The notes under the pieces: generated by a model
The model's input: the letters and a program-made list of their open reading frames with translations, nothing else
Told to the model about the DNA's origin: nothing
Databases searched by the model: none
Made by a program: the position numbers and the translations under genes
In this document: one piece after another, positions 1 through 52,378 of the stretch
How positions within the stretch are numbered: the first letter of the stretch is position 1
Layout of the letters: every line of letters begins with the position of its first letter
Source: a candidate division Kazan bacterium RIFCSPHIGHO2_01_FULL_44_14
GTDB taxonomy: Bacteria > Patescibacteriota > Kazan-3B-28
DNA: 64,000 nucleotides
Assembly: GCA_001771185.1 (NCBI GenBank)
Contig: METB01000001.1
Span: forward strand, 94,520-158,519
Reading direction: 5' to 3'

Positions 1-304
1 TTAAACTGCTGACATAACAATTTTTAAGAATTTCTGCCTCCCCACCTCTTTCCTGTCCAAAAACCGGGCCGACTGTATGGATGACATATTTGGCCAACAA
101 ATTGTGTCCAGCCGTTATCCGTGCTTCTCCTGTTGGACAATACCCCAGTTTTCTACATTCTTGCGTCAGCCCCAACCCTGCCACACGATGAATAGCTCCC
201 GACACTCCACCACCAGCGGTTAGACGATTGTTGGCGGAATTCACAATGACATCCGCATCCTGTGCGGTGATATCTCCTTTAATCAGGACTGGCTTATATT
301 TCAT
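1..304 (-). CDS. Macro-domain protein (ADP-ribose / O-acetyl-ADP-ribose processing, MacroD/YmdB-like); partial, C-terminus runs off window start
   Basis: Manual minus-strand translation from the ATG at 302-304 gives [43 protein letters not shown]...[17 protein letters not shown]. This matches the macro-domain NAAN..L..GGGV..AI..AAG and V.H.VGP motifs. The frame stays open to position 1. Confidence 0.8.
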
Positions 305-403: not shown

Positions 404-1165
404 CTATAAGCTATTGAGCTCTTTATACATTTTAGCCACCTCCTCTGCTATAGATTCATACTCATTTCTGCCCACGACTTCTCTAATCTGGTCAATGTAC
501 CGCGTAGTCAACCTAAGGTGAAACGTTAAACCCAAAAATAAACCCTGTTGCATATAAAGTCCGTTCATCATCTCTGATTCTTTCGGATCCAACATTCCCC
601 TCACCACCATAGGGTTTGGATGATTCAGCCTACTTCCCCAAATATAAGCCTGCCCTATACGAGAAAAATCGAAGTCATTCAAGCAATGCTTATCGTGTAG
701 AGCCTTGAGCATCATATCCGCACTTAGACCCGCCCAACTATGTCTACCGTCCTTCAAATAAGATGGCACTTTTTCATACGACTCTGCCAGAATAGCAGAT
801 GATACGTCCAAATTAAGTGCCTCCTCTTGGTCCTTACCGCCAATCGATTTCAAAAACTCACGATCTTGGGTTAATTGAACCCAAAGATAGTCTTGAAATT
901 CCTTGGCCTTTTTATCTCTACCCTTCATTAACATATATTCAACGGTAAGCGAATACTCGGTTAGCTTGCGAGCCAAGTCTAAAACGCTCGCCGCAGCCTC
1001 CGTATGAGTAGCAAGATAATTGATATCCCTTAGTGCGGAAAAGGACACCCGATATATCCCCAACAGAACAGTCAAAAAATCATCTTGCTCAGTTCTTGCC
1101 CCTTCCGCCAATGGCTGGGTCGCAACCAGTAGTCTAACAAGCAACGACTTGAACCTATTTATCAT
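404..1165 (-). CDS. Hypothetical protein (253 aa), second gene of a two-gene operon; no recognisable domain
   Basis: Long ORF with an 11-nt overlap with the upstream ORF 1155..1886 (operonic). The macro-domain gene lies 100 bp downstream on the same strand. No motif is recognisable by eye. Confidence 0.6.
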   Translation of the reverse strand: MINRFKSLLVRLLVATQPLAEGARTEQDDFLTVLLGIYRVSFSALRDINYLATHTEAAASVLDLARKLTEYSLTVEYMLMKGRDKKAKEFQDYLWVQLTQDREFLKSIGGKDQEEALNLDVSSAILAESYEKVPSYLKDGRHSWAGLSADMMLKALHDKHCLNDFDFSRIGQAYIWGSRLNHPNPMVVRGMLDPKESEMMNGLYMQQGLFLGLTFHLRLTTRYIDQIREVVGRNEYESIAEEVAKMYKELNSL

Positions 1166-1886
1166 TAGTCACGACCTCCGCCACATCTACAAATGGCTCA
1201 ATTCGAAGATGTTGGTAAAGCAAATCTCGTATATCCCCAAAAATCTGATCAAGTGCCCCATCAATCTGAACCTGATTACTGGCTGCTATGCCGATCCATC
1301 GCTTCTGGGCCAATTCAAAAGATTCTACTATTTTACGCTTAAAGTGATCCACTGCTTCGGGTCGCATCCGATCTTTAAATGGTGAACTATCTCCCGATAC
1401 AGTAGCAAACACGCTTGCATCCACAAGATCCGCATCTGCAAACCGCATTCCCGTATGGTGATGCGGAACTCTGCACTCGGCTATCCCATTAAATACCTTA
1501 TAGAGTTGTCCTTTAATATGTTTAAGAGCCACCACCCACTCTTTGCCATTATTGGCCCGTCGTACATCTTTGGTTAGTACATCAAGAAAAGTTTTAACCT
1601 TATCCTTCAAACTATCAACGTCCTCTAGATAAGCATGGAGATGATGTTCGAGTGCCTCTGCACTGCTGATTTGCCCCGACTGATCGGGATAAAACTCGGT
1701 AAAATAAACTTCGTACCTTTTAACTTTTTTCAGAGCTTGGCTCAGAATCATAAGAAGTCCCAAGTACCTCTCCAACTCTCCATCATCCACACCAGTCTTA
1801 TCGATCCTGGTTATATACTGCTTCATTAGACACTCGGGATGAGCATAGACCATAACATCTGCAACTACCTTGTCAAAATTATTCAT
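1155..1886 (-). CDS. Hypothetical protein (243 aa), first gene of the two-gene operon; no recognisable domain
   Basis: Long ORF starting at ATG 1886 (MNNFDKVV...). It overlaps the downstream ORF by 11 nt. It sits inside a defence-island context. Confidence 0.6.
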   Translation of the reverse strand: MNNFDKVVADVMVYAHPECLMKQYITRIDKTGVDDGELERYLGLLMILSQALKKVKRYEVYFTEFYPDQSGQISSAEALEHHLHAYLEDVDSLKDKVKTFLDVLTKDVRRANNGKEWVVALKHIKGQLYKVFNGIAECRVPHHHTGMRFADADLVDASVFATVSGDSSPFKDRMRPEAVDHFKRKIVESFELAQKRWIGIAASNQVQIDGALDQIFGDIRDLLYQHLRIEPFVDVAEVVTNDK

Positions 1887-2010
1887 TTTAATCCTAAGAC
1901 ATATAAAATAGGTAAAACTTAGACCCAGACCAACTATACAGTGCTATCCCACCAGAGATCTGTCAATCACCTCCATAAAGGAGCTGCACAAAAATACAAA
2001 CTATCTATAT

Positions 2011-3180
2011 TCAACGATTTCCTTTTGCTCTATTATGCGTCTTACATAACATCTCACAGTTTTTGGCCGCCGTTTCGCCACCCTTACTCCATGCCGTTAC
2101 ATGATCTGCGTCCATTTCGTCTAACTTCCAAATCTTACTCTTGCTGGCATCATGTCCAATAGCACAATATGGACAGTTTGATTTACCTTGAGCTTCAGCC
2201 CTAGCAGTCTGTGTTGAATAAACAGCCTTCTTGGTCGCCTCATCAAAAACTCGAACATCGATCAATTTTGTGTCAATGGACCCACCGAGAATATACTCAA
2301 AAATGCCTTTGCGATTTTTGATGTACGGATCGCCATAGAGCTTATGCACCTCGGCTGATACTTTGGCTGGGTTGTATGATTTTTTGTGATACTCCTCGTA
2401 AAGTCGTCCCCATTCAAGCCCACGCATTTCGCTTTCTACGTCAGTAAATACGCTAGATACCCAATCAATGACGGTATTAAAATATTTTTTCAGCTCATCA
2501 ATATTTTTGTCTTTGCGATGCTTGCTCATGTAGTCGCCAATATTGCCTTTGCTTACCCAATCAAGAGCACATTCCAAAAATTCTTGCCTGTTGGCACTAC
2601 CTGATACATACGCACTCCATTTTTGAATATTGGCGTTTTGGCTATTACTGAATTCCTCTTTAGCTCTAGTTACGAACGGGCCGGAATACACGGCGTTGAG
2701 TAATTCCTGATTATTGAGCGGAACACCAGCAATATTGATTGTCTTAAACCATTCTTTTATCTGACTTTCTGTCCCTTCACACTCGTAAATGAGCAGTTTC
2801 GTTTCCAAAATTTTGACTTGCTTGTCTTTTGCCATACCGCCATAATATTGCTCCATGCCATTTTCGTCTTTGATGGCAAATTTGTCGGTGATAAATCGTC
2901 CGAGACTAGTGATGCGCTGTTGCCCGTCTAAGACTTCTAGGTTGTCGTCAGAAACTTTGTTGAAATAAATCAATCCTATCGGGTATCCTTTGAGAATTGA
3001 TTCAATAACGGCCATTTCTCTTTTGCCTCCGTCAGAAGCATAGATATAATTACGCTGATACTCTGGCTGAATCGTTAGTTTGCCGGATAAGCCAAACAAA
3101 CCCTTGCCTTCAAGTTCGTTATAGACGAACCCATCACAAATATCTTTGACTGTGGTGCTAGTCTTAAGTGTTGTTTTCAT
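2011..3180 (-). CDS. DUF262 (ParB/Srx-like, DGQQR motif) N-terminal domain fused to a C-terminal HNH nuclease; putative restriction-type endonuclease
   Basis: Motifs [11 protein letters not shown] and [10 protein letters not shown] are the DUF262 QR and DGQQR signatures. The C-terminus CPYCAIGHD...[10 protein letters not shown]...[15 protein letters not shown] is an HNH motif (CxxC...H...N...H). The start lies 4 nt after the upstream methyltransferase stop. Confidence 0.8.
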
Positions 3181-3184
3181 ATTA

Positions 3185-4282
3185 TTATTTCTTACGTCTT
3201 ATAAAAACTCGCTTAAAAGTTTCCTTGCCACTAATATGTGATCCGCGACCGTAAATTCTATTTGGATCTTGATCTATGCCTCGATTCGATCCAAGCAATT
3301 CAAACTGATCTGGATTATATTTATCTAAAAAACTGACAGGAACACCCATCACACCATCATAATCGCTTGGAATGGCATCGGTAAACGGAATTTCAATGGC
3401 ATCGTAGTTATCGTACTTATCATAAGATTTTTTGCCTTTAATCTCTTTGTGCTTGCTGTATTTTAAGTTCTCCTCCATTGTCATAAGTGGCAATATTTGG
3501 TGACGACGCCCATGATCAAGATTGGTAAACCAACAACAGTTTCTGAATTTCACCAAGCCAGTTTCTGGGTCATACACCCCGCCCGCATATTCTCTAGTAA
3601 TAGGCGTAGAAAAATAAGCGTTGCCAGCATTAAAGCCATTTCCTAACCACATTTTATTTTCTTTTATCAATGGAAATATTTCCTTGTAAATAATCGCACT
3701 TAGGTTACCAATGATAACGAATTTTTTATGATACTCAAAAAGCTGCTTCACATATTCACGAAATAGACTGAACGGCGGATTAGTTACCACAATATCGGAT
3801 TGTTCTAGTAATTTTATGCACTCGGGACCTCTAAAATCGCCATCTTTCTCAAGCGGCGTCCATTCATTATTTCTGTTTGCCCTTAACTGTTTGGCAATAT
3901 CTTTCAAGTTGAACTCACCGTCGCCGTCTATGTCCTTCACTTCGTTGATAATAAATTTGTTGGCGGTTACCTTTGGGCGGCCTTTTGCTTTTACAAGCGT
4001 TTTGTCATCACCAAACAAGCCTAATTGCGTGTTAGCAACAGGCGACGGCTTATAACTAGTTGTAATGAGCCGTTTTAATCCAAGCTTATTAAAATTGAGC
4101 ACAAAATAACGAAAAAAATTGCTCTCAAACGGATCATCGCAATTACAATACACCACCTGATCTCGAAACACATTGGGATTATATTCCAGATACGCCGAAA
4201 TCTCTTTTTGGATATCGCTATATTGGGTATAAAACTCATCGTTCTTTACCCTTTTTGCATTCGTAAGATTACTGTTTGCCAT
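3185..4282 (-). CDS. Putative N6-adenine DNA methyltransferase (gamma-class order: FYT motif X, then NPPF motif IV)
   Basis: NDEFYTQ near the N-terminus and IVVTNPPFS (the NPPF catalytic motif) are present. It is immediately upstream of and co-directional with the DUF262-HNH gene. Motif I is atypical ([12 protein letters not shown]), hence the moderate confidence. Confidence 0.65.
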
Positions 4283-4438
4283 AGTACATCCCGATAGTAC
4301 TCCAATATAAAATCCTCTTCTAAAGCCAGTTTTTGACTCCTTTAGTATAACTCAAAATAAGGCTTATTGGGACTGGACTTCGAGCCCCCTTCGGGCATCC
4401 TTACTCTGGTATAGACCGATAGACAAATGGAGGTGAAT

Positions 4439-5776
4439 ATGGCGCAAAACGAAGCGGTTTTAGAGACCCCAGAGGGGACCAGAGAAGCTCCCCAAGCAGA
4501 AGTTGGGAGATACTGCCTCTATGCCCGAAAGTCATCCGAATCGGACGAAAGACAGGCCTTATCCATCGACTCCCAAATCAAAGAGATGATGGCTATCGCC
4601 GAACGGGATGGTATTGAGGTGGTCGAGACAATCAGAGAGAGCCATTCAGCTAAGGATTCCGGCCAAAGACCGGAGTTTATGGAGCTTTTAAGGCGAATCA
4701 GAGAACAAGAGTTCAATGGAATTCTCACTTGGGCTCCCGACAGACTTTCGAGAAATGCAGGGGATTTGGGAGATCTGGTGGATATGATGGACCAAGGATT
4801 GCTGAAACACATCAAGACACCTAGCCAGATATTTAGGAATTCCCCCAATGAGAAATTCCTTTTAATGATTCTGTGCAGTCAGGCAAAGTTGGAAAATGAT
4901 AATCGAGGCATCAATGTAAAACGCGGAATGAAAAATAAATGCGACATGGGTTGGATGCCGTGTCTCCCTCCGCTTGGTTATCTGAACGATAAAGCAAATC
5001 ACACAATCATTGTCGATGCAGAACGAGCTCCGTTTATTAAAGAAGCATTTAATAAAGTCGCCGAGGAAGGCTATACCGGCAGAGCGTTATGGAGTTGGTT
5101 TAATAAAGAAACAGAATTTACAACCAGAGCGGGAAAGAAGATGGCTCTAAGTATGGTTCACAATATGCTGAGAAATCATTTTTACTACGGCCAGTTTATG
5201 CACGGCGGAGTAATGCACCAAGGTAAACATGAACCGCTGATTACAAAAGAGCTGTTTGATAAAGTCAGAGAAGCCATGCAAAAAGGCCCTCGGGGCAGAT
5301 ATGGCGAAAAAATGTTCGCCTTCACTCGAATGATAACCTGCGGAAGATGCGAACTTGGAATAACAGCTGAAGAAAAAGTTAAAAAGCTAAAAAATGGAGA
5401 AGGCCGACGACATGTCTACTACCATTGCAGCGGGTTTGGCAAATATCGATGTAAAGAGGGCTGGATGCGAGAAGCCGACCTTATTGAGCAATTTGTTGAG
5501 CTAATAGATGGAATGGATATCAACCGAATTGGAATGAGAGAGAAACTCCAAGAAGAAATTGAACGATACAATCGCTTCACCACCGGAGTACTCGGTATGA
5601 ATCCCGACACTTCCCCAATTCCCAGAGTAGACCTTAAAATGTACGCGAAATATATCTTGAGAGATGGTAGTCCAGAAGAAAAGCGAGAAATATTAAAGAA
5701 CATCAAAAACAAGGTGGTGCTGCACGATGGAAAACTATCGCTACAAAACACTCCGGAGTTAATTGAGCCCATCTAA
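4439..5776 (+). CDS. Large serine recombinase / serine integrase (resolvase catalytic domain, recombinase domain, zinc-ribbon)
   Basis: YCLYARKSSESDERQALSIDSQ is the resolvase catalytic-Ser motif. The protein is ~445 aa with a Cys-rich region (CGRCE...HCSGFGKYRC). GGAGGTG lies 5 nt before the ATG at 4439; an alternative in-frame ATG is at 4427. Confidence 0.85.
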   Translation: MAQNEAVLETPEGTREAPQAEVGRYCLYARKSSESDERQALSIDSQIKEMMAIAERDGIEVVETIRESHSAKDSGQRPEFMELLRRIREQEFNGILTWAPDRLSRNAGDLGDLVDMMDQGLLKHIKTPSQIFRNSPNEKFLLMILCSQAKLENDNRGINVKRGMKNKCDMGWMPCLPPLGYLNDKANHTIIVDAERAPFIKEAFNKVAEEGYTGRALWSWFNKETEFTTRAGKKMALSMVHNMLRNHFYYGQFMHGGVMHQGKHEPLITKELFDKVREAMQKGPRGRYGEKMFAFTRMITCGRCELGITAEEKVKKLKNGEGRRHVYYHCSGFGKYRCKEGWMREADLIEQFVELIDGMDINRIGMREKLQEEIERYNRFTTGVLGMNPDTSPIPRVDLKMYAKYILRDGSPEEKREILKNIKNKVVLHDGKLSLQNTPELIEPI

Positions 5777-5892
5777 CCCAACCATTGCGAAAAAGTTTAT
5801 AGTCTATGAGAAAAGTGGTTCATGCGCACCAGGAACGGTAATCTAGCTAGAGTAGGCTTACAACTCCCAACGGTATGATTTTGTACGGATAG

Positions 5893-7404
5893 TTATGCCT
5901 CGTTCTCTGGGGATAGTGAAACAAAGAGTTCGTAAAGTTTCTGAAATTTCTCACCAAATATTCGCCCAATCCTATTCCTTCTTATGGCATCCTGCAAATA
6001 CGACTCAGCATATGCTAATTCGGATTTTCGTCCAATGAGTTTCTTGAGTAGTGGCTTGCCAGAAGTTAATTTTAATATAGCAGTGTCGATTTTTGTCTTA
6101 GCCACATTTGACATAGTTTTCCAGACTGGGTCTTGAGACGATGCCATCTTGGATTTAATAGTTGACTGTACATTACTTTTGGTTACCCCCAGTACAGCAG
6201 ATACGATATCTAAATCGTACATAAGACACCCCTCCATGTCATACTGAGCCAACTTAATGAAGTGATTATCTCCTGGAAATTTGTCTGGCTGGTTATCACC
6301 ATCAGTCAAAAAAGAAACATTCGTAATAACAGAGGGTATGGAATTGCTAGCAAATAATTTATAGGCACTTTCTACTCCACCTTTTGCATTGTGTACCTCA
6401 ATCACATCAACAAGCTTTTGTGCACCCGAAATTTTTGCCAATGTCTCGATAACTATTTTATGGATATGGTCTTCTACAAAAACCACATGATTCCCCGATG
6501 GGTCATTAACTATCTTGAATACTCGCGTCCTGAGAGCATCTATTGTTTCTGATGTGGGGTTGCTAGATATTGCAAAGTGTTTAGCCTTACGGTTAATTTC
6601 CAGGAACTTAGAAATATTTTTATAGCCCTCTTCAAACACAATCATTGAATGAGTTGCTACCACAATTTGCTTATCGTATTCTTTGGCGAACCAATTTAAA
6701 TAGTCAAAAAAATACTTCTCGAACGACCAATTCAGATGTATCTCAGGTTCGTCTATAAGAAAAACATCATATTCATCACGTGCTTCATAAAGTTGGAATG
6801 CTAGAGATATGGATTCAGTCTCGCCTACACTCAATTGGTCTGTTGTAACTTTAAGAAAGCCAAACTTTTTTATGACAAAATCAGGAACATCCGCCTCCTC
6901 AAGTTTTAGGTCAACTATCTGATATTCGCTATATAATCGTCTCAGAATATTATTAAACTCTCTTACGGTACGCTTAAGAATGGTTATTTGGTCAACGCCT
7001 TCAGGTGTCACATTGCGCGCTTCGTGATAATGATACAAAACGATATCCGAAAATGGCGGATAGGTTTGATGGGATAGCTCTTCTAGTTTGCGATTATAGG
7101 CATTTTTTAAGTCATCCTTAATCTTACGTTGACTAGAAAATATCTCTTGTACACTTTGCTTAAATTTCCTTATTTCGATGCTTCGACTTGGGCTGTAAAC
7201 GGCAACCCTAAGGCCGGCCTGTCTAGATTGTTGCTCAATCTCAGATAAGAGTTTGCTTTTCCCGGAACCATTAATACCAGAGATAAGATTCAAGTGGGGA
7301 TTAAGATCGACGATTAGCCCATGCAAAAAATCTAACCCCTCGAGGTCTTTATAACCACTTGTAGTAGCACTTGCTAAAAATTTTACCAATCCGTCTTCAT
7401 TCAT
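5893..7404 (-). CDS. OLD-family nuclease (N-terminal ABC-type ATPase, C-terminal TOPRIM), stand-alone (class 1 OLD / GajA-like without an adjacent helicase)
   Basis: Walker A is LISGINGSGKSKLL, signature-like QLSVGE, Walker B VFLIDEPEIHLN. The TOPRIM motifs are HVVFVEDHIHKIVIE (conserved Glu) and SFLTDGDNQ (DxD). No UvrD-like partner gene is adjacent. Confidence 0.8.
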   Translation of the reverse strand: MNEDGLVKFLASATTSGYKDLEGLDFLHGLIVDLNPHLNLISGINGSGKSKLLSEIEQQSRQAGLRVAVYSPSRSIEIRKFKQSVQEIFSSQRKIKDDLKNAYNRKLEELSHQTYPPFSDIVLYHYHEARNVTPEGVDQITILKRTVREFNNILRRLYSEYQIVDLKLEEADVPDFVIKKFGFLKVTTDQLSVGETESISLAFQLYEARDEYDVFLIDEPEIHLNWSFEKYFFDYLNWFAKEYDKQIVVATHSMIVFEEGYKNISKFLEINRKAKHFAISSNPTSETIDALRTRVFKIVNDPSGNHVVFVEDHIHKIVIETLAKISGAQKLVDVIEVHNAKGGVESAYKLFASNSIPSVITNVSFLTDGDNQPDKFPGDNHFIKLAQYDMEGCLMYDLDIVSAVLGVTKSNVQSTIKSKMASSQDPVWKTMSNVAKTKIDTAILKLTSGKPLLKKLIGRKSELAYAESYLQDAIRRNRIGRIFGEKFQKLYELFVSLSPENEA

Positions 7405-7561
7405 TGTTTTATCAATTTGTCACAGCATTAGAATCAATCGACCGGACGCCACCATTCTAACACCAAAAAAGCCCCTTTGAAGGGTCTTCCTTGGAATATA
7501 TTTCTCACGCTTTTTTTATCGAGCTTACTAGGCAAGACGGTCACTTTGCCATTGTAGCTCT

Positions 7562-7635
7562 TGGCTGGGACGGAAGGACTCGAACCTTCGATCATGGGAC
7601 CAGAACCCATTGCCTTACCACTTGGCTACGTCCCA
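7562..7635 (-). tRNA. tRNA-Gln (anticodon CTG)
   Basis: A manual cloverleaf works. The acceptor TGGGACG/CGTCCCA has the U1:A72 pair, the D-stem is GCC/GGC, the anticodon stem is ATGGG/CCCAT with loop TTCTGGT, the T-arm is GAAGG-TTCGAGT-CCTTC, and the 3' end is an encoded GCCA. Confidence 0.8.
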
Positions 7636-7984
7636 CTAATAAGGCGTGAAAAAATAGTTTATCAATAAATTTGGTACGGAACCCGCCTACGCTCTACGAG
7701 CTTCGGAACGGGCAGGCAGGCGCCATCCGTTGTCTTATTTACCCCCGTAGCGAACTTCGCTCTGTTTCGGGGCCACTTGTCTGCCTGCCGATAGGCAGGG
7801 CTACACCCCATCACAATGAGTATTGAGTATAGAGAATTGGGTTATGAGTGTGAAGAGGGGTATCTGGAATTAGTGCAACCCCTCGGTCCTGCTGGACAGC
7901 AGGACTCGGGGAAACAAGGTTTATGTTTTAGTTTCTAGCTAGTCCAATTATCAGACATCTACCATGTCCGAAAGTATAAACCGA

Positions 7985-9764: not shown

Positions 9765-9905
9765 ATAAGTGATAAGTGAAAAGTTGTGGTTACCCGACAA
9801 GTAATTTTTAATGATGAATTTTGAATTTTGAACCAATGAGATAATGTTTTAATTTTCAAACATTCAGTCATTGGGATTTGATTAGAAATTAGAAATTAAA
9901 AATTG
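9765..9905 (+). repeat. Copy 1 of a MITE-like intergenic repeat (other copies at 15518..15797 and inverted at 35884..36085)
   Basis: The shared sequence is gtgaaaagtt(a)taagtgataagt ... aagtaatttttaatgatgaattttgaattttga ... taattttgaaacattcagtcattgggatttgattagaaattagaaatt. All three copies align on it. Confidence 0.7.
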
Positions 9906-13221: not shown

Positions 13222-14337
13222 TTATTCCGTTTGTTTCATTTGCTTTACGAGACGGTCGACTAGGGTTTTAATCTCGGACTGGAAGCGTTGGCGACTAAAT
13301 TTCTGGGCGTGTTCGGAAATTATACTGGGATCAAATTTGGTTTCTTTCTCAACAAATTCTTGAATGGCGGATTTTAAACTGGCAACGGTTTGTTCGGAAA
13401 AGAACAGGCCGGTTTTGCCATCGATAACCGTTTCTAAACAACCTCCTTTGCCGTAAGCAATCACTGGTTTACCGGCGGATTGAAGTTCAACCGGTACAAT
13501 CCCAAAGTCCTCCTCGCCAGGGAAAATCAACGCCCGACAAGTTCGAATATAGTCAATTTTTTGTTCGTCGCTAATCCAGCCGGTAATCGTAACCGTTGGA
13601 CCGGCCATGTGTTTAAGTTCGACTTCCATTTCCCCAGTGCCGATTACGATCAATGGCAATTCAAGTTCGTTACACACCCGAACCACCAAGTCCAGTCGCT
13701 TATATTGACTCAACCGCGCAATCGCAATGAAATGGCCTTTGTTCTCGTGAGAAATTTGAATTTTATCAGTATCGACTGATGGGTAAATTACGATTGATTC
13801 TCGCCGATAAAATTTGCGGATTCGGTCAGCGACATAATTTGAATTGGCAACATACTGATCAACTCGTGAAGCCCCGAGAAAATCCCAAATTCTAATTTTA
13901 CTCAAAATTCCTTTGACGACCGCTTTGACCATTCTATTCATTTGTTTATCCGCCAGGTAAATATGCCAAGCGTCCCACACATAGCGCATCGGAGTATGAA
14001 CATAGGAAATATGAATGGTGTGGGGATTAGTAAGAATGTTTTTGGCAAACGAATGAGAACTTGAAATCACCACATCAAAGTCGTCAAAATCAAAACTTTC
14101 AATAGCCAGAGCATAGAATGGAAGCAAAAATTTAGCGGGAACCCAACTCCATTTTTGTAAATAAGAAGTGATGATTTGACGATGGCCGAACCACGGGTTA
14201 AGTTTTTTGTCGTAAAACAGAGTATAAATTGGCGCTTCCGGGTAAAGATCGCTAATCGCTAAAGTCACTCGTTCGGCTCCGCCGAAGGTATGGAAGAAAT
14301 CGTGAACAATCGCAATGTTTGGCTTTTTGTCTGTCAT
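13222..14337 (-). CDS. Glycosyltransferase family 4
   Basis: EEDFGIVPVELQSAGKPVIAYGKGGCLETV is the GT4 motif. The start was trimmed to MTDKKPNIAIVHDF (ATG 14337). The longer ORF to 14484 would run through a conserved intergenic hairpin repeat and overlap the next gene. Confidence 0.8.
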   Translation of the reverse strand: MTDKKPNIAIVHDFFHTFGGAERVTLAISDLYPEAPIYTLFYDKKLNPWFGHRQIITSYLQKWSWVPAKFLLPFYALAIESFDFDDFDVVISSSHSFAKNILTNPHTIHISYVHTPMRYVWDAWHIYLADKQMNRMVKAVVKGILSKIRIWDFLGASRVDQYVANSNYVADRIRKFYRRESIVIYPSVDTDKIQISHENKGHFIAIARLSQYKRLDLVVRVCNELELPLIVIGTGEMEVELKHMAGPTVTITGWISDEQKIDYIRTCRALIFPGEEDFGIVPVELQSAGKPVIAYGKGGCLETVIDGKTGLFFSEQTVASLKSAIQEFVEKETKFDPSIISEHAQKFSRQRFQSEIKTLVDRLVKQMKQTE

Positions 14338-15506: not shown

Positions 15507-15517
15507 GGTGAAAAGTT

Positions 15518-15797
15518 AAAAGTTAAAAGTGATAAGTCCTCCTCCGCCTAAAGCTACGGAAGGATCTGTGATGAAAAGTGACGGCATTTATCCTCCTGCC
15601 GTCATCCCGGCAAAGGCCGGGATCGTATAAGATTCTGGATGCGTTCTGCTGTCCAGCAGAACTTACCAGAATGACGGATGTCCCGGCAAGTAATTTTGAA
15701 TGATGAATTTTGAATTTTGAGTGAATAACCCTAATATCTTAATTTTGAAACATTCAGTCATTGGAATTTGATTAGAAATTAGAAATTGGAAATTAAG
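15518..15797 (+). repeat. Copy 2 of the MITE-like repeat, carrying a ~135-bp internal insert rich in palindromes (gttctgctgtccagcagaac, ccagaatgacgg)
   Basis: The 5' part ggtgaaaagttaaaagttaaaagtgataagt and the 3' part aagtaattttgaatgatgaattttgaattttga...cattcagtcattggaatttgattagaaattagaaatt both match copy 1. Confidence 0.65.
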
Positions 15798-35883: not shown

Positions 35884-36085
35884 TCTTAATTTCTAATTTC
35901 GAATCAAATCCCAATGACTGAATGTTTCAAAATTAAGATATTGAGATATTGATTCAAAATTCAAAATTCATCATTAAAAATTACTTGCTGGAACATTACA
36001 ACTTTTCATCGCAGATCCTTCCGTAGTTCTGCCGTACGGCAGAACGAAGGAGGACTTTTCACCTATCACTTCCCTCATTTGTCAT
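35884..36085 (-). repeat. Copy 3 (inverted) of the MITE-like repeat, with a palindromic insert ccgtagttctgccgtacggcagaacgaagg
   Basis: Its reverse complement matches aagtaatttttaatgatgaattttgaattttga...cattcagtcattgggatttgattcgaaattagaaatt and ...gtgataggtgaaaagt. Confidence 0.65.
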
Positions 36086-47921: not shown

Positions 47922-48012
47922 TGGCAGGACAGACGGGTTCAGACCCTCCCCCCAAGGAGTAAAAACGAGGATATTGGGTAGGTCGTCTGGCACTTGGGTT
48001 CATTATAGAACC
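47922..48012 (-). promoter_or_regulatory. R2 repeat copy c, in the divergent intergenic region between the SSF transporter and the R-M methyltransferase
   Basis: tggcaggacagacgggttcagaccc...ccaaggagtaaaaa...gggtaggtcgtctggcacttgggttcattatagaacc. Confidence 0.5.
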
Positions 48013-48127
48013 TAAGGAGAAAATGAGACAAATGAGACATCCCATGAAAAGACCTCGATGTCTTATTTTAGGGATTACCCTGCTGTATCTAGGTCTTCCA
48101 TGAACCGTGGGTTAAGATAGTAGTAGG

Positions 48128-49762
48128 ATGAAGTTCATGGTCGATGAGAGTGTGCAGAAGTTAAGAGGGGGGTATTATACACCCCTAGATTTAGCAACTT
48201 TTCTTGCCAAATGGGTTAACGGAGTTAATCCCGAGAAGGTTTTAGAGCCTAGCTGTGGAGATGGGGTATTTTTTAGTGCTTTTGCGCATATTGGCGGATT
48301 AGCACAAGGGCGTATAACTGGGTTTGAGCTTGATCCACGTGAAGCCATCAAGGCTCGCACCAAAGCAACGCAATGTAAGGTGCGAGCTAAGATTCACCAA
48401 GAAGATTTTTTGGGTTGGGCCAAAAACAAGCTCGGAGATGGAGCTGTGTCATTTGATGCAGTAGTGGGCAATCCACCCTTTATTAGGTACCAATATCTCC
48501 CTCCAGAATTTCAGAGTCAAGCCGAGGCAATCTTCCGGACACTGGGTCTACCTTTCACAAAACACACCAATGCATGGGTTCCTTTTGTCCTTGCATCTAT
48601 TGCTCTACTAAGACCGGGAGGGCGTCTTGCTATGGTCGTACCAGCTGAAATTATTCATATCCCCCACGCTCAAGCACTGAGGACGTATTTGGGAAAAAGT
48701 TGTAGACGTATAGTAATTGTTGACCCAGAAGAAATGTGGTTTGATGAAACGCTACAAGGTACCGTTTTGTTGCTTGCCGAAAAACTGCATGATAGTTCAG
48801 ATCATCCTCATGGATTAGGAATTTATCCTGTCAAAGGGAGAGAGTTTCTATTACTGGATCCCGAGACTGTATTCATGTCACCAAAAGCCATAAATGGTAA
48901 AACTATCGAGGGTAAATGGACTAGAGCATTATTAGACTCTTCGACGCTGGCCTTGATAGATAAGCTAACGAGACACCCAAATGTTCATGTTTTTAAAGAC
49001 ATAGCGGACGTAGATGTTGGGATAGTCACGGGTGCTAATGATTATTTTTTGGTATCAGAAAAAACGGTTAAGCAGTTCCACTTGTCTCCTTGGGCTCATC
49101 CCATGTTCGGCCGTAGCCAGCAATGTCCGGGCATTATATTTGATAAGACCCAGCATCAAGCCAATATTAAAGGAGATAAACCAGCCTACTTTATTTGGTT
49201 CTCAAAAGATGAGAGGTTACAAGATTCTAACGCTCTGGCGTATATACAGCATGGGGAAAAACAGAATTTTCATATTCGATATAAATGTCGCGTTAGAGCT
49301 CCTTGGTATTCTGTTACTTCTGTTTATGCAACCGAGATTGGCATGTTAAAAAGGGCACATAATTTACCTCGTCTTGTACTCAATAAGATGGGCGCTTTTA
49401 CTACCGACACGGCATATAGGATTAATAGCCAGATTCCTGCTAAACAGCTGGTCGGTAGTTTCATTAATTCGCTCACGGCTCTGAGTGCAGAATTAGAAGG
49501 TCGTCATTACGGTGGTGGTGTTCTAGAATTGGTTCCCTCTGAAATTGAACACCTATTGTTGCCTATACCTGACGACACTGTATTCGACTTAGGAGAACTA
49601 GACGATCTTGTACGCACGGCAGATACTGAGCTGATATTGCGCAAACAAGACACAAGGATATTAACTCCGCTTGGTATTTCGGAGGCTGAACGACTTAAAC
49701 TTTTAACTGGTTGGAAAAAATTGCGGAATAGGCGTCAACGCATATCGCAACTGGAAGATTAG
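48128..49762 (+). CDS. N6-adenine DNA methyltransferase (gamma-class, TaqI/Eco57I-like) with a C-terminal target-recognition domain
   Basis: Motif X GGYYTPLDLATFLAKW, motif I LEPSCGDGVFF, motif IV VVGNPPFIRY. Confidence 0.85.
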   Translation: MKFMVDESVQKLRGGYYTPLDLATFLAKWVNGVNPEKVLEPSCGDGVFFSAFAHIGGLAQGRITGFELDPREAIKARTKATQCKVRAKIHQEDFLGWAKNKLGDGAVSFDAVVGNPPFIRYQYLPPEFQSQAEAIFRTLGLPFTKHTNAWVPFVLASIALLRPGGRLAMVVPAEIIHIPHAQALRTYLGKSCRRIVIVDPEEMWFDETLQGTVLLLAEKLHDSSDHPHGLGIYPVKGREFLLLDPETVFMSPKAINGKTIEGKWTRALLDSSTLALIDKLTRHPNVHVFKDIADVDVGIVTGANDYFLVSEKTVKQFHLSPWAHPMFGRSQQCPGIIFDKTQHQANIKGDKPAYFIWFSKDERLQDSNALAYIQHGEKQNFHIRYKCRVRAPWYSVTSVYATEIGMLKRAHNLPRLVLNKMGAFTTDTAYRINSQIPAKQLVGSFINSLTALSAELEGRHYGGGVLELVPSEIEHLLLPIPDDTVFDLGELDDLVRTADTELILRKQDTRILTPLGISEAERLKLLTGWKKLRNRRQRISQLED

Positions 49763-50904
49763 TCAATCTCGAGCACAAATCTATTCGAATCATTCATATC
49801 TCTGTATAGCGAGAGTGTACGTCCAATTAGATTTGTGCGAGCTATATATTCCGAAAACGGCCCCCAGCTGAGACGGGTCATTGCGTTTCTTTGTCTGTAG
49901 GTTGTACTTGTAGTGTCGGTGCTGTGATGAATATCCAGAGCAAGCTCACCACAGTACACGCCCTTTATTATAAGTTGAAATGTCGCGCTGGATTCTTCTA
50001 CATTACCAGTTGGACTAGGTGTCCATATCAGGTGGCTAAACACAACATCTCTAAAATAATGTCTGTGATCTATGTGGGTATCGAGAAGACCCTTGTCCAG
50101 GTTAATAGAGCCCGTACGATGTGTTTGTGCCGCTTGGGGAATATTAAGATCTCTTTCGGTGAGAGGCTTACTATCCCAGACTAGTTCAAGATTTGATGCA
50201 GGTTGGACAGGAACGTTCTCTATATTTTGATTCTGTGGGATTATTGTAGCTGCAACTATTTCTCTACGGAGGGGGGTAGTTCTGAGTTGTATACGTGTTA
50301 TAGTATCGTCGACAGACCTTGCTGTTACAGGGTGAGGTGAGGAGGTTTTTGATTCATCAAGTAGCCGACCACTTGATTGTAGATGAGCCAGTTCTTCTTT
50401 GGTGTTAACTAAAAAAATATGCTCTGGGTCGCAAGTCATTAAGTCAAGGAGTTGATCTTGGACATTCAAAACTATGTCATGATCTGCAGTAATATTCAAA
50501 TCTAATGTGAGTGCCAAACTAGACTCTATGTTATTATTCAGACCACCGATAGTGAGATTAGCACTTCCTATCACCATCCTTGCTTCGTTGGGACCTTTGG
50601 CAAAGTAGAGTTTGGGGTGAAAAATAACAGTGCGGGCCCCCGTATCTACCACATAGAGGGTCACTCCCAAATCAATTAATCTTTCTAGACCTTGTAGGGA
50701 AGTTATATCGTTGCGTATACCCACAAAGAACTTTGCCCTGTCTACGAACGGACGCAGAGCTTCTTCAATAAGGCGAACTCCGTCATTATTCACAAAGGCA
50801 ATACTGAAAATAATCTCTTCTATTTCAGGAGTTTCTAGCACTGTTTTTACTGCTTGAACATGGGTATCCGCAGTAAAACCTTGGAGGATAAAACGTGTGG
50901 GCAT
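49759..50904 (-). CDS. Phospholipase-D-superfamily (HKD) nuclease; putative BfiI-like restriction endonuclease
   Basis: FHPKLYFAKGPNEARMVIGSANLTIGGL is the HxK(x)4D...GSxN HKD motif in the N-terminal half. The ~200-aa C-terminal domain is a candidate DNA-binding domain. The gene is convergent with the MTase, and the 3' ends overlap by 4 nt. Confidence 0.75.
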   Translation of the reverse strand: MPTRFILQGFTADTHVQAVKTVLETPEIEEIIFSIAFVNNDGVRLIEEALRPFVDRAKFFVGIRNDITSLQGLERLIDLGVTLYVVDTGARTVIFHPKLYFAKGPNEARMVIGSANLTIGGLNNNIESSLALTLDLNITADHDIVLNVQDQLLDLMTCDPEHIFLVNTKEELAHLQSSGRLLDESKTSSPHPVTARSVDDTITRIQLRTTPLRREIVAATIIPQNQNIENVPVQPASNLELVWDSKPLTERDLNIPQAAQTHRTGSINLDKGLLDTHIDHRHYFRDVVFSHLIWTPSPTGNVEESSATFQLIIKGVYCGELALDIHHSTDTTSTTYRQRNAMTRLSWGPFSEYIARTNLIGRTLSLYRDMNDSNRFVLEID

Positions 50905-50939
50905 TTTTACTTGTGTAGAAACTATATATCTTGGCTGGC

Positions 50940-52220
50940 CTAGAGAGACCCTGACCCCCCTACCGGCAGCTTATCCGTGCCCTGTGTCTGACTGACGGAG
51001 GGTATTTGAGGGCTGACAGGAGAAACTTTATTAGATTCTCGAGGCTCTACCTCAATGGGTTGAAGTTGAGAAATCGATTCAACGGAAGCACCGAGTTCCT
51101 TGAGTCTTTCAACTTGAGGGAGCACCATACTATCTAACGAGCCAACAGCCGAATTGTATTTTTTAGTGGCACTTGACAGATTACTCCCAATACCTACAAA
51201 GTGTTCTGCAAAAGTTTTTAATCTAATTCCTAGGGTGCCCACTTGTTTCATTATTTCGACTGCATTTTCTGCAGCCTTGTGTTGCTTCCATGCATGAGCA
51301 ATTAGAAGTATCAAAGGCATGATTGTAGCCGGACTGGCTAACATAACACTTTTGTTCTGGGCTTCCCTGTATAGGCTGGGATCTTTTTCGAAGACGGCTC
51401 TGACCGCAGCTTCACCTGGGATAAACATAATGACGTACGGGATACGATTATCCAAATATCTCTGGTATTCTTTGGTAGATAATGCTTTAACCCGATTCTT
51501 AAGACTAGTAGAAAATAAACCAAGGTGTCTCTCCTTTTCCGCTTCATCAGTGGTCTCTACAGCCCTCATAAAATCTTCAAGACTAGCTTTAGAATCAACG
51601 GCAAGTTTGAGCCCCCCAGGTAAATTAATAATGATGTCTGGTCGTAATGAAGATTCTTCTCCGGATAAAGTTTGTTGAACCAGAAAGTCCGTGCCTTCTT
51701 GTAAACCACATTCAGTAAGAATGTTTTTTAAGACAGTCTCACCCCACCTCCCCCTCACCGGACTGGCAGAAGACAAAACGGCTTTTAGTGACAACGTACT
51801 TTGTTCAATTTTCGTACCCGTATCTAACACCCGTTTAATGCTTTCTCCCAAAGCCCCAAATTGTTCATTTCTCTGTGTTTCCCAGCTTGCAACTTTCTCA
51901 TTGACCGATTTAACTGATTTATCAATATTATCGGCTATATTTTTAAAGCCAGTCTCTTTATGCTCCAAGTCTGTATTAATGACTTCCCGGGCTGACTTAA
52001 ATTGCTCAAGAAAATCCCGAGAGTGCTGTCGTAAAACCTCATTAGCTACGGACTTAAATCGATCACTGAGTTCTTCTTCGGTTTTTTGTATTGCGGTAGA
52101 TATTTTTTGCTCCGCCACGATTTCGGCATCTTTTCTTGCATTTTTAATAAATCCGGCTATAAAATAGCCCACCAGTCCCCCCAGAACAAAAGTCGCGACA
52201 GGAACTAAGTAAAGCATCAT
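50940..52220 (-). CDS. rmuC: DNA recombination protein RmuC
   Basis: N-terminal TM plus coiled coil, then the RmuC core RGRWGETVLKNIL...LPGG...KASLEDF. Confidence 0.85.
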   Translation of the reverse strand: MMLYLVPVATFVLGGLVGYFIAGFIKNARKDAEIVAEQKISTAIQKTEEELSDRFKSVANEVLRQHSRDFLEQFKSAREVINTDLEHKETGFKNIADNIDKSVKSVNEKVASWETQRNEQFGALGESIKRVLDTGTKIEQSTLSLKAVLSSASPVRGRWGETVLKNILTECGLQEGTDFLVQQTLSGEESSLRPDIIINLPGGLKLAVDSKASLEDFMRAVETTDEAEKERHLGLFSTSLKNRVKALSTKEYQRYLDNRIPYVIMFIPGEAAVRAVFEKDPSLYREAQNKSVMLASPATIMPLILLIAHAWKQHKAAENAVEIMKQVGTLGIRLKTFAEHFVGIGSNLSSATKKYNSAVGSLDSMVLPQVERLKELGASVESISQLQPIEVEPRESNKVSPVSPQIPSVSQTQGTDKLPVGGSGSL

Positions 52221-52304
52221 CGTGAATTTAATTAGTTATATTTAAAATTGATAGCTTATAATCCTCCTGGGGAGACGGGCGGGTCGCTTGACTCGCGCAC
52301 TTGA

Positions 52305-52378
52305 TGGCAGGGGCGAGAGGAGTCGGACCTCTACTTAGAGTTTTGGAGACTCTCGTGATACCGTTTCACTACGCCCCT
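52305..52378 (-). tRNA. tRNA-Trp (anticodon CCA)
   Basis: The manual fold has acceptor AGGGGCG/CGCCCCT, D-stem GTGA/TCAC, anticodon stem AGAGT/ACTCT with loop CTCCAAA, T-arm AGAGG-TCCGACT-CCTCT and an encoded GCCA. Confidence 0.85.

Follow-up and report, generated by a model that had tools for sequence, protein, structure and literature searches.

A block of DNA at the left end of a 64,000-nucleotide stretch from candidate division Kazan bacterium RIFCSPHIGHO2_01_FULL_44_14 (contig METB01000001.1, positions 94,520 to 158,519; hereafter the window) is most probably one integrative element. This element, named here island A, occupies window positions -414..7561 and appears to have been inserted by its own large serine recombinase (LSR) at the last nucleotides, CAGCCA, of the tRNA-Gln gene; we put the probability of this reading at about 0.8. 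The host, a bacterium with a tiny genome from groundwater of the Rifle aquifer, belongs to the Candidate Phyla Radiation (CPR), and NCBI names the recombinase A3K24_00495. Genomes in the CPR are tiny, there are no genetic tools for these bacteria, and the ways in which they gain and exchange defence genes are poorly described.

According to this reading, a circular form of the element would bear an attachment site (attP) made of a P arm, the core CAGCCA that is common to the tRNA end, and a P′ arm. The LSR would exchange strands within this core, and the element would come to lie between the tRNA and the sequence that formerly followed it; the 3′ end of tRNA-Gln would therefore stay intact. 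ARAGORN, Pfam and Rfam confirmed the tRNA, the LSR gene and the OLD-type gene in the region to which an earlier note, made from the letters of this DNA, had assigned them:

7562..7635, minus strand: tRNA-Gln(CTG), found by ARAGORN and by the Rfam tRNA model (65.1 bits); intact, CCA encoded, with its 3′ end at 7562 towards the block
7529..7561, minus strand: P′ arm beside tRNA-Gln (AGAGCTACAATGGCAAAGTGACCGTCTTGCCTA), with GACC at +20..+23 from the CCA; kept in L097 and L103 at tRNA-Trp
7465..7486, minus strand: hairpin and T-run (GACCCTTCAAAGGGGCTTTTTT) immediately inward of the P′ arm; a similar hairpin follows the arm in L099, L103 and L105
5893..7404, minus strand: OLD-type ABC-ATPase plus TOPRIM protein, 503 aa (Pfam, PADLOC, alignment, fold); cargo in the slot between tRNA and LSR
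4427..5776, plus strand: LSR, 449 aa (Pfam, family alignment), convergent with the tRNA; an alternative start at 4439 gives 445 aa
4369..4400, plus strand: conserved element upstream of the LSR gene (GGGACTGGACTT...TTCGGGCATCC), invariant in five related loci

Limits of island A

Positions left of the window were read from L001 (JGI contig Ga0209542_10000165), whose reverse strand is identical to the window (window position = 11166 - p, with p the position in L001) and which reaches 9.6 kb further left. The limits of the island come from a second contig, L092, which is 99.1% identical to L001 across 2,216 bp comprising a glycosyltransferase gene, the gene of a 104-aa membrane protein (identical in the two contigs) and the tRNA, up to the last base of tRNA-Gln. 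Past the tRNA CCA, L092 runs directly into sequence matching L001 11575-11613, and it lacks exactly 7,976 bp that are present in the window genome from the end of the tRNA-Gln CCA, the junction being precise to the base. The two alignments overlap by CAGCCA, and island A is therefore L001 3605-11580, that is, window -414..7561 (7,976 bp). Its first base is the one next after the tRNA-Gln CCA, and comparison of the junctions shows the tRNA to be preserved. Its far end lies 415 bp left of the window start, past a Macro-domain gene and about 200 bp of non-coding DNA; the left boundary, which the earlier note had left open, is thus fixed at -414 through the comparison with L092.

CAGCCA forms a 6-bp direct repeat flanking the island. 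The proximal copy (L001 3599-3604, window 7562-7567) is the last 6 nt of tRNA-Gln and is the presumed crossover region, and the distal copy lies at L001 11575-11580 (window -409..-414). The sequences would place the crossover only somewhere within these 6 bp, and a repeat of this length is as expected of a serine rather than a tyrosine integrase. The attL junction reads CCGTCCCAGCCAAGAGCTACAATGG and the site without island A reads CCGTCCCAGCCAGCAAGGGCACGAG. The earlier note had seen no clear direct repeat in the window, in agreement with a distal copy that starts 409 bp to the left of it, and the 17 kb downstream of the tRNA hold no match to the tRNA-Gln 3′ end above chance.

Other comparisons, some of which the earlier note had proposed (a search for an empty site, base composition against the flanks), point the same way. 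The nearest complete species-representative genome, Kazan GW2011_GWA1_50_15 (CP011216; 78% identity in GluRS; hereafter Kazan GWA1), shares GluRS, the glycosyltransferase (GT4), the 104-aa gene and tRNA-Gln, followed about 170 bp on by the orthologue of L001 13275-13667, and none of the island A genes are present in it. The island has a GC content of 41.4% vs 44.9%, lower than all equal-sized windows in the 65 kb of flanks (z -4.3), and its tetranucleotide distance is the greatest among them (z 3.0). An exact 32-mer from the tRNA-Gln 3′ end had no match in the metagenome collection, which includes contigs of the same JGI sample, and therefore no empty sites were added to L092, which is itself not a virgin attB (see below). 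Together with the termini shared with related elements, the L092 indel, the absence from Kazan GWA1 and the deviant composition bear out the proposal of the earlier note that the block is an inserted mobile element extending left of the window.

The recombinase

The domain content of the protein, as predicted from its sequence, is that of an LSR: a resolvase-type catalytic domain (Pfam Resolvase, 4.8e-20), a Recombinase domain (5.2e-14) and a zinc ribbon (Zn_ribbon_recom, 7.4e-5, at 23.5 bits against a cut-off of 25.3 bits), the last being found in nearly all homologues. The motif YARKSSESDERQALSIDSQ (RKSS...SIDSQ), from which the earlier note had recognised a large serine integrase, is invariant across 26 homologues, as are YARKSS at residues 32-37, in which the catalytic R34 and S36 are kept, and the zinc-ribbon cysteines C305, C308, C334 and C342. 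The catalytic domain aligns with TP901-1 integrase (3BVP) and the C-terminal part with A118 integrase (4KIS), and the earlier assignment holds. Since the protein is the sole recombinase in island A, is full length and retains every family-invariant residue, we infer that it catalysed the insertion.

The best curated NCBIfam match is CcrB (7e-33), at 114 bits against a cut-off of 900 bits, and the LSR is therefore not a Ccr. An exact look-up of the 449-aa protein found no match in the collection, because the gene callers used there took the second ATG (445 aa). Homologues of 420-460 aa number in the thousands, and all named ones among the top 120 are from the CPR.

A weak resemblance to the tRNA 3′ end at 4365-4395, pointed out by the earlier note, was rejected as an att or tRNA remnant, since it scored no better than chance, was not among the best matches in the 17 kb, and coincides with the conserved element that precedes related LSR genes.

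Conserved termini and a candidate attP

Both ends of island A are conserved in elements whose LSRs are 68-72% identical to that of the island. Three close homologues were inspected; in L097 the LSR (70% identical) lies 2.7 kb from tRNA-Trp, and in L103 (72% identical) it lies 0.8 kb from tRNA-Trp. Both of these loci have the layout of the window: LSR and tRNA converge, with one or two cargo genes separating them, and beyond the LSR come restriction-modification (R-M), helicase or regulator genes in divergent orientation. The 30-35 nt that follow the CCA are conserved, with AGAGCTACAATGGCAAAGTGACCGTCTTGCC in the window, ACAGCTACACTAGAACAGTGACCGTAGTGCC in L097 and GCAGCTAC...CGTAGTGCC in L103.

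The opposite end is a terminal module (L001 11417-11580, window -251..-414) in which TGTCNCATT repeats at -251..-269 and -297..-315 are followed by the P arm. Its distal approximately 120 bp are conserved in L097 (89-206 and 2000-2117) and in island B, a second cassette of the family within the window (47922-48039; described below), in the order TGTCGCATTTGTCGCATTTTCTCC ... TATAAT ... AACAGCT ... TTTTACTCCTTGGG ... AGCTGTTC-A-GCCA. The final 6-7 nt of each copy repeat the end of the tRNA to which it belongs, CAGCCA at tRNA-Gln and CTGCCA or CCTGCCA at tRNA-Trp; the L097 module, for example, ends in CTGCCA, the last nucleotides of the L097 tRNA-Trp. The module contains two TGTCNCATT units (duplicated in island A), an outward-facing TATAAT-like box, and an AACAGCT/AGCTGTT inverted repeat with about 45 nt between its halves, in which one compensatory change was seen in a degenerate copy. 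It had no match in Rfam, and it could provide accessory sites for the recombinase or a regulator, an outward promoter or a small RNA.

Joining the two ends gives a reconstructed attP with the P arm ...TTTTACTCCTTGGGAATCAACCGTATCCGAGCTGTT, the core CAGCCA and the P′ arm AGAGCTACAATGGCAAAGTGACCGTCTTGCC, the junction being GAGCTGTTCAGCCAAGAGCTACAATGG. The core is bracketed by 7-bp inverted repeats, imperfect in island A (AGCTGTT-CAGCC-AAGAGCT) and perfect in L097 (AGCTGTT-CTGCC-AACAGCT).

These termini also bear on whether the block is a composite of two acquired units, one with the OLD-type gene and the LSR and the other with the R-M genes and the rest, with an internal att remnant at 4365-4395. 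The LSR does lie mid-block rather than at an end, relatives differ in cargo on each side of it, and tandem remnants exist in L097. However, no second P′ or P arm was found inside island A, the tRNA 3′ end has no above-chance match in the 17 kb, positions 4369-4400 are a conserved upstream element in 5/5 related LSR loci compared, and L092 lacks the entire 7,976 bp, not part of it. A composite origin is thus quite improbable.

tRNA ends across the recombinase family

We surveyed 85 loci with LSR homologues, of which 80 were metagenome loci collected with a profile of 26 LSRs (49-56% identity) and five were loci of close relatives. Wherever a tRNA was found downstream of the LSR stop, the nearest one was on the opposite strand with its 3′ end towards the LSR (38/38 loci having one; binomial p 7e-12), at a median distance of 2.4 kb. 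Among the loci whose downstream flank reaches at least 5 kb (n=38), 24 had such an opposite-strand tRNA. The target tRNAs were those for Ser (14), Trp (6), Gln (5), Arg (4), Asn (3), Asp (2), Lys (2) and Glu (2). When all tRNAs were counted, the downstream side of the LSR had 49 on the minus and five on the plus strand (404 kb), and the upstream side had four (458 kb).

The terminal sequences recur along with this arrangement. In 24/38 loci GACC stands 10-32 nt past the tRNA end, vs 4.6% of control windows (p 5e-23), and in 20 of the 24 loci that have it, its position is +20..+23, as in island A. Thirteen further loci carry the hallmark of TGTCNCATT repeats on the far side of the LSR, and in three (L111, L162 and L185) the hallmark is closely followed by 6-8 bp that repeat the tRNA end, which delimits islands of 9.5-12 kb. 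At L099 (13431-13560) the island is of the same type as in L105 (about 87% identical) and no tRNA was called nearby; at its proximal end two GGGAGCCA repeats, 62 bp apart, bracket a P′-type arm.

The survey is hard to reconcile with the LSR being a resolvase or invertase that serves the adjacent R-M or defence genes, for example in phase variation, with the island having arrived by another route, such as homologous recombination in its flanks after DNA uptake. In favour of such a role, the LSR gene and a methyltransferase or regulator gene point away from each other, in relatives as well as here, uptake of DNA by CPR bacteria is believed to occur, and a 6-bp repeat is short. Yet no inverted repeat fit for inversion was found in or around island A, the protein has full integrase-type C-terminal domains, and the orientation of the downstream tRNA is uniform in 38/38 loci, with the termini co-occurring with the LSR across tRNAs and lineages. 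We regard this alternative as improbable.

An older cassette beside island A

The 33 nt past the far end of island A (GCAAGGGCACGAGTCAAGCGACCCGT...) also follow tRNA-Trp in the window. In L105 the GCAAGGGCACGAGTCAAGCGACCCGT block stands between the CCA of tRNA-Trp and an island interior that is common to L099 and L103, and it has GACC at +20..+23, in the same register as other P′ arms. From this position and register it follows that the block is an arm of the element type, and L092 is therefore a site without island A that keeps the arm of an older cassette. We had considered the post-island sequence (CGAGTCAAGCGACCCG) as the native trailer of the tRNA, with L092 as a virgin site, and rejected this on account of its P′-arm position in L105, L099 and L103.

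In the window genome, island A sits between tRNA-Gln and the putative remnant of this older cassette (L001 11581-13270), which consists of a P′-type arm and then a family-2 glycosyltransferase gene that is absent from Kazan GWA1. An RND transporter gene at L001 13630-16812 is absent from Kazan GWA1 as well, and the stretch downstream of tRNA-Gln looks like a variable region with a history of multiple events. In L097, remnants of cassettes seem to be stacked at a single tRNA: it has three P arms and, at 13528-13986, two P′ arms, one of which follows tRNA-Trp while the other lies 450 bp further inward, behind a degenerate copy of the tRNA end. These arrangements suggest that cassettes of this family may stack in tandem, as elements of the staphylococcal cassette chromosome (SCC) type do.

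The second cassette of the family in the window, island B, has the same parts at another tRNA:

47922-52304: island B, at tRNA-Trp (52305-52378, minus strand), with P′ arm, hallmark and P arm
50940-52220: RmuC, first gene inward from the tRNA, after the P′ arm
49759-50904: PLD-type (PLD-like) nuclease
48128-49762: Eco57I-like methyltransferase
48021-48039: hallmark TGTCTCATTTGTCTCATTT
47922-47928: end of the P arm, CCTGCCA, repeating 7 bp of the tRNA-Trp end

The flank outside island B reads CCGTCCGTCGTTCTGCC... No recombinase gene was found in island B among open reading frames of at least 90 aa, and the cassette is either non-autonomous or decayed.

Taken together, the survey and the stacking raise the possibility that this LSR clade constitutes an undescribed family of tRNA-end cassettes, characterised by use of the last 6-8 nt of many tRNAs, the module of about 120 bp and insertion beside an existing P′ arm. 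We put this forward tentatively, at less than even odds. If it is true, defence cassettes, including LSR-less ones served in trans, would pile up at tRNAs as SCC elements do at rlmH, and the LSR would accept a tRNA-core-P′ target (attL-like), against the canonical rule of attP x attB only.

Several observations weigh against integration at the tRNA end as we propose it, or qualify it. The sole site without island A, L092, is a contig of 7.9 kb whose outer flanks both differ from those of the window genome, and it has an element-type arm after tRNA-Gln, so that a virgin attB was not seen. Insertion beside a tRNA-core-P′ site is not predicted by the canonical LSR rule, and may point to a Ccr-like enzyme that is permissive, or to a more complex history. 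Over 20-nt arms the reconstructed attP and attB show weak dyad symmetry, only the core-adjacent 7-bp repeats standing out. All contigs with the OLD-type gene (18/18) show the integrated form, with no circular or excised form among them, the attP junction GAGCTGTTCAGCCAAGAGCTACAATGG and the terminal 24-mer are both absent from IMG/VR, and no recombination directionality factor was recognised in island A.

Some of these points would also fit an island that was integrated by the LSR and is now a fixed, immobile remnant, the L092 polymorphism reflecting old history or a deletion. The missing circular junction (in all contigs and in IMG/VR) and directionality factor are what one would then see, and across many Rifle samples the island varies little or not at all. 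Against this, the LSR is full length with all of its invariant residues, both terminal modules are intact, their conservation equalling that in relatives, and a strain at 99.1% identity is without the island at a base-precise junction. We consider a fixed remnant possible and on balance doubtful, and by the preferred reading, in which island A is an integrative element with its own LSR, the element may still be mobile.

A few features of the flanks were noted in passing. Between the gene of the 104-aa membrane protein and tRNA-Gln lies a GC-rich, repeat-like spacer of 350 bp (window 7636-7984), at which several assemblies break; no dispersed copies of it were found in the window, and Kazan GWA1 has two genes in its place (407 and 329 aa; L007 13020-15240). 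Matches to L092 also brought up short dispersed intergenic repeats at window 15510-15579, 36000-36071, 9843-9892, 15733-15782 and 35893-35944, and the left breakpoint of the synteny between L092 and the window falls within one of them.

The OLD-type protein and other cargo

The protein encoded between the LSR gene and the tRNA satisfies, in sequence and predicted fold, the description of a class 1 OLD nuclease, and nuclease activity is predicted. Pfam recognises an ABC-type ATPase (AAA_15, 3.8e-12), and an alignment of 12 family members shows as invariant G43/N45/G46/K49, S192/G194, D218/E219 and H252, corresponding to Walker A, signature, Walker B and H-loop. Pfam TOPRIM models did not match the protein, also when its C-terminal half was searched alone, and the TOPRIM assignment therefore rests on motif and fold: E311 and D368-G-D370 are invariant in the same alignment, and the top Foldseek match in the PDB for an AlphaFold2 model (pLDDT 79.6) is the class 1 OLD nuclease 6P74 (E 5.5e-8). 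The PADLOC models AriAB, ATPase-Toprim and GajA reach residues 371-441.

Class 1 OLD proteins (Thermus scotoductus OLD, 6P74, and phage P2 Old) and this protein are alike in that an ABC ATPase at the N-terminus and a TOPRIM domain at the C-terminus, the latter with a conserved Glu and DxD, are joined in one polypeptide, and in having no partner gene. Unlike 6P74, to which it is about 13% identical, the protein is missed by the Pfam TOPRIM models and belongs to a compact subfamily of about 490 aa. This subfamily is small, with 134 cluster representatives at E<=1e-30, the top-ranked of which are mostly full length. The neighbours of the gene are the LSR gene and the tRNA, with no adjacent helicase (class 2), GajB (Gabija) or AriB (PARIS); the earlier note was therefore right to call it stand-alone, and its assignment to the OLD family of ATPase-TOPRIM proteins agrees with the AAA_15 match, the E311/DGD motif and the 6P74 fold.

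The remaining genes of island A lie on the other side of the LSR:

3185..4282, minus strand: EcoRI-like N6-adenine DNA methyltransferase, 365 aa (EcoRI_methylase 6.6e-123; MTase_II 1.1e-100, PADLOC)
2011..3180, minus strand: GmrSD_N (DUF262) plus HNH endonuclease, 389 aa (Pfam; PADLOC REase_II 7.9e-83, full-length match)
1155..1886, minus strand: 243-aa protein with no family match, overlapping the next gene by 11 bp
404..1165, minus strand: DUF5677-like protein, 253 aa (Pfam 1.4e-5, at 25.7 bits vs a cut-off of 27.1 bits)
1..304, minus strand: Macro-domain (ADP-ribose hydrolase-like) gene, of which only the 5′ part lies inside the window; the full gene is at L001 10862-11383

The methyltransferase gene diverges from the LSR gene. 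The overlap of 11 bp between the genes of the 243-aa and DUF5677-like proteins suggests an operon; the pair (404-1886) had no match in PADLOC or NCBIfam, yet it stands among defence genes and is a candidate for an uncharacterised defence pair. As a whole, the cargo would be defensive, to judge by the predicted OLD nuclease, the Type II R-M pair, the uncharacterised pair and the Macro protein. The tRNA was the only known RNA family detected in island A (Rfam). Contigs L003, L004, L006, L090, L091 and L093, from at least five independent assemblies, end within the R-M genes (window 2300-3700), which suggests that the R-M module is heterogeneous among strains of the population. The longer methyltransferase of L005/L089 is not a real variant and was discarded, as it consists of a scaffold gap (run of N) and a foreign methyltransferase fragment.

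This gene content leaves little room for a phage satellite or a prophage in decay. LSRs are well known as integrases of phages, and the LSR relatives L104 and L105 come from contigs filed in IMG/VR. However, none of the seven island genes matched capsid, tail, terminase or replication families in Pfam or NCBIfam, two of them being without any match (PHROGs was not searched), the related loci that we inspected carry R-M, helicase and ATPase genes with no phage structural genes called, and the element is only 8 kb long. We therefore consider a phage origin of this kind very improbable, and continue to read island A as an integrative element with its own recombinase.

Relation to known systems

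As a defence island at a tRNA, island A is of an ordinary kind, and it is the pairing of an LSR with a tRNA end that, provisionally, appears to be undescribed. To our knowledge, serine enzymes at tRNA ends are known only from scattered cases, namely the phage phiRSM and a minority of the tycheposons. phiRSM reportedly integrates at the 3′ end of tRNA-Ser, and would share with island A a serine-family recombinase that uses a tRNA 3′ end as attB. Unlike the LSR of island A, its enzyme is small and resolvase-like, without Recombinase and zinc-ribbon domains, and belongs to an inovirus with no cargo island; integration of this filamentous phage by a small serine recombinase is ascribed to Askora 2011 (reference 22 in PMC7192596). 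Among the tycheposons of Prochlorococcus, 27/937 encode a large serine recombinase (bioRxiv 10.1101/2020.12.28.424599). These too are small, cargo-carrying integrative elements at tRNA genes of a streamlined genome, likened here by description and not by sequence, but they overwhelmingly use tyrosine recombinases and often have replication modules, whereas the family of island A is LSR-only as sampled and CPR-specific among the named matches.

Insertion at tRNA genes is described as a hallmark of islands with tyrosine integrases (Islander/TIGER; Williams 2002, as cited in PMC12884075). Island A resembles such islands in its insertion at a tRNA 3′ end with the tRNA preserved, its presence or absence among strains, its deviant composition, its accessory and defence cargo and the tandem arrays at one tRNA. 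It differs from them in its serine recombinase, in an integrase gene that is internal and convergent with the tRNA, and in the family's repeat of 6-8 bp, compared with the usual tens of bp of tRNA sequence.

The nearest analogue, in function only, is the SCC family, that is, SCC/SCCmec-type cassettes moved by Ccr LSRs, including SCC-like cassettes that carry defence genes (PMC11470126). In both cases a non-replicative cargo cassette is moved by an LSR to the extreme 3′ end of a housekeeping gene that is not inactivated, and both have short flanking direct repeats, several cassettes at one site, recombinase-less cassettes and defence cargo. However, island A targets a tRNA 3′ end and SCC targets rlmH, island A has one LSR and no Ccr in place of the CcrA/CcrB pair, its host is a CPR bacterium and not a staphylococcus, and its terminal module (the TGTCNCATT repeats and other elements) is unrelated. 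Neither a CcrA/B/C equivalog nor an rlmH target, by which SCC membership is recognised, was found for island A. What sets the island apart from all of these systems would be its recombinase class, the family-wide targeting of tRNA ends, the conserved terminal module and the apparent stacking.

The main LSR survey (PMC10083194) takes clusters of protein-coding genes as the targets, with no mention of tRNA or Patescibacteria, and a survey of Patescibacteria islands (PMC12455944) does not mention integrases or tRNAs. For a very abundant clade of CPR serine integrases, the element ends are now placed to the base, and there is a candidate attP, with tRNA 3′ termini as the target rule. If the tandem stacking is true, it bears on how strict the directionality rules of LSRs are in nature. 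If the enzymes are active, they would be compact integrases with short, conserved and predictable targets, of possible use in engineering, and their activity would explain a recurrent hot spot of defence-gene turnover in the CPR.

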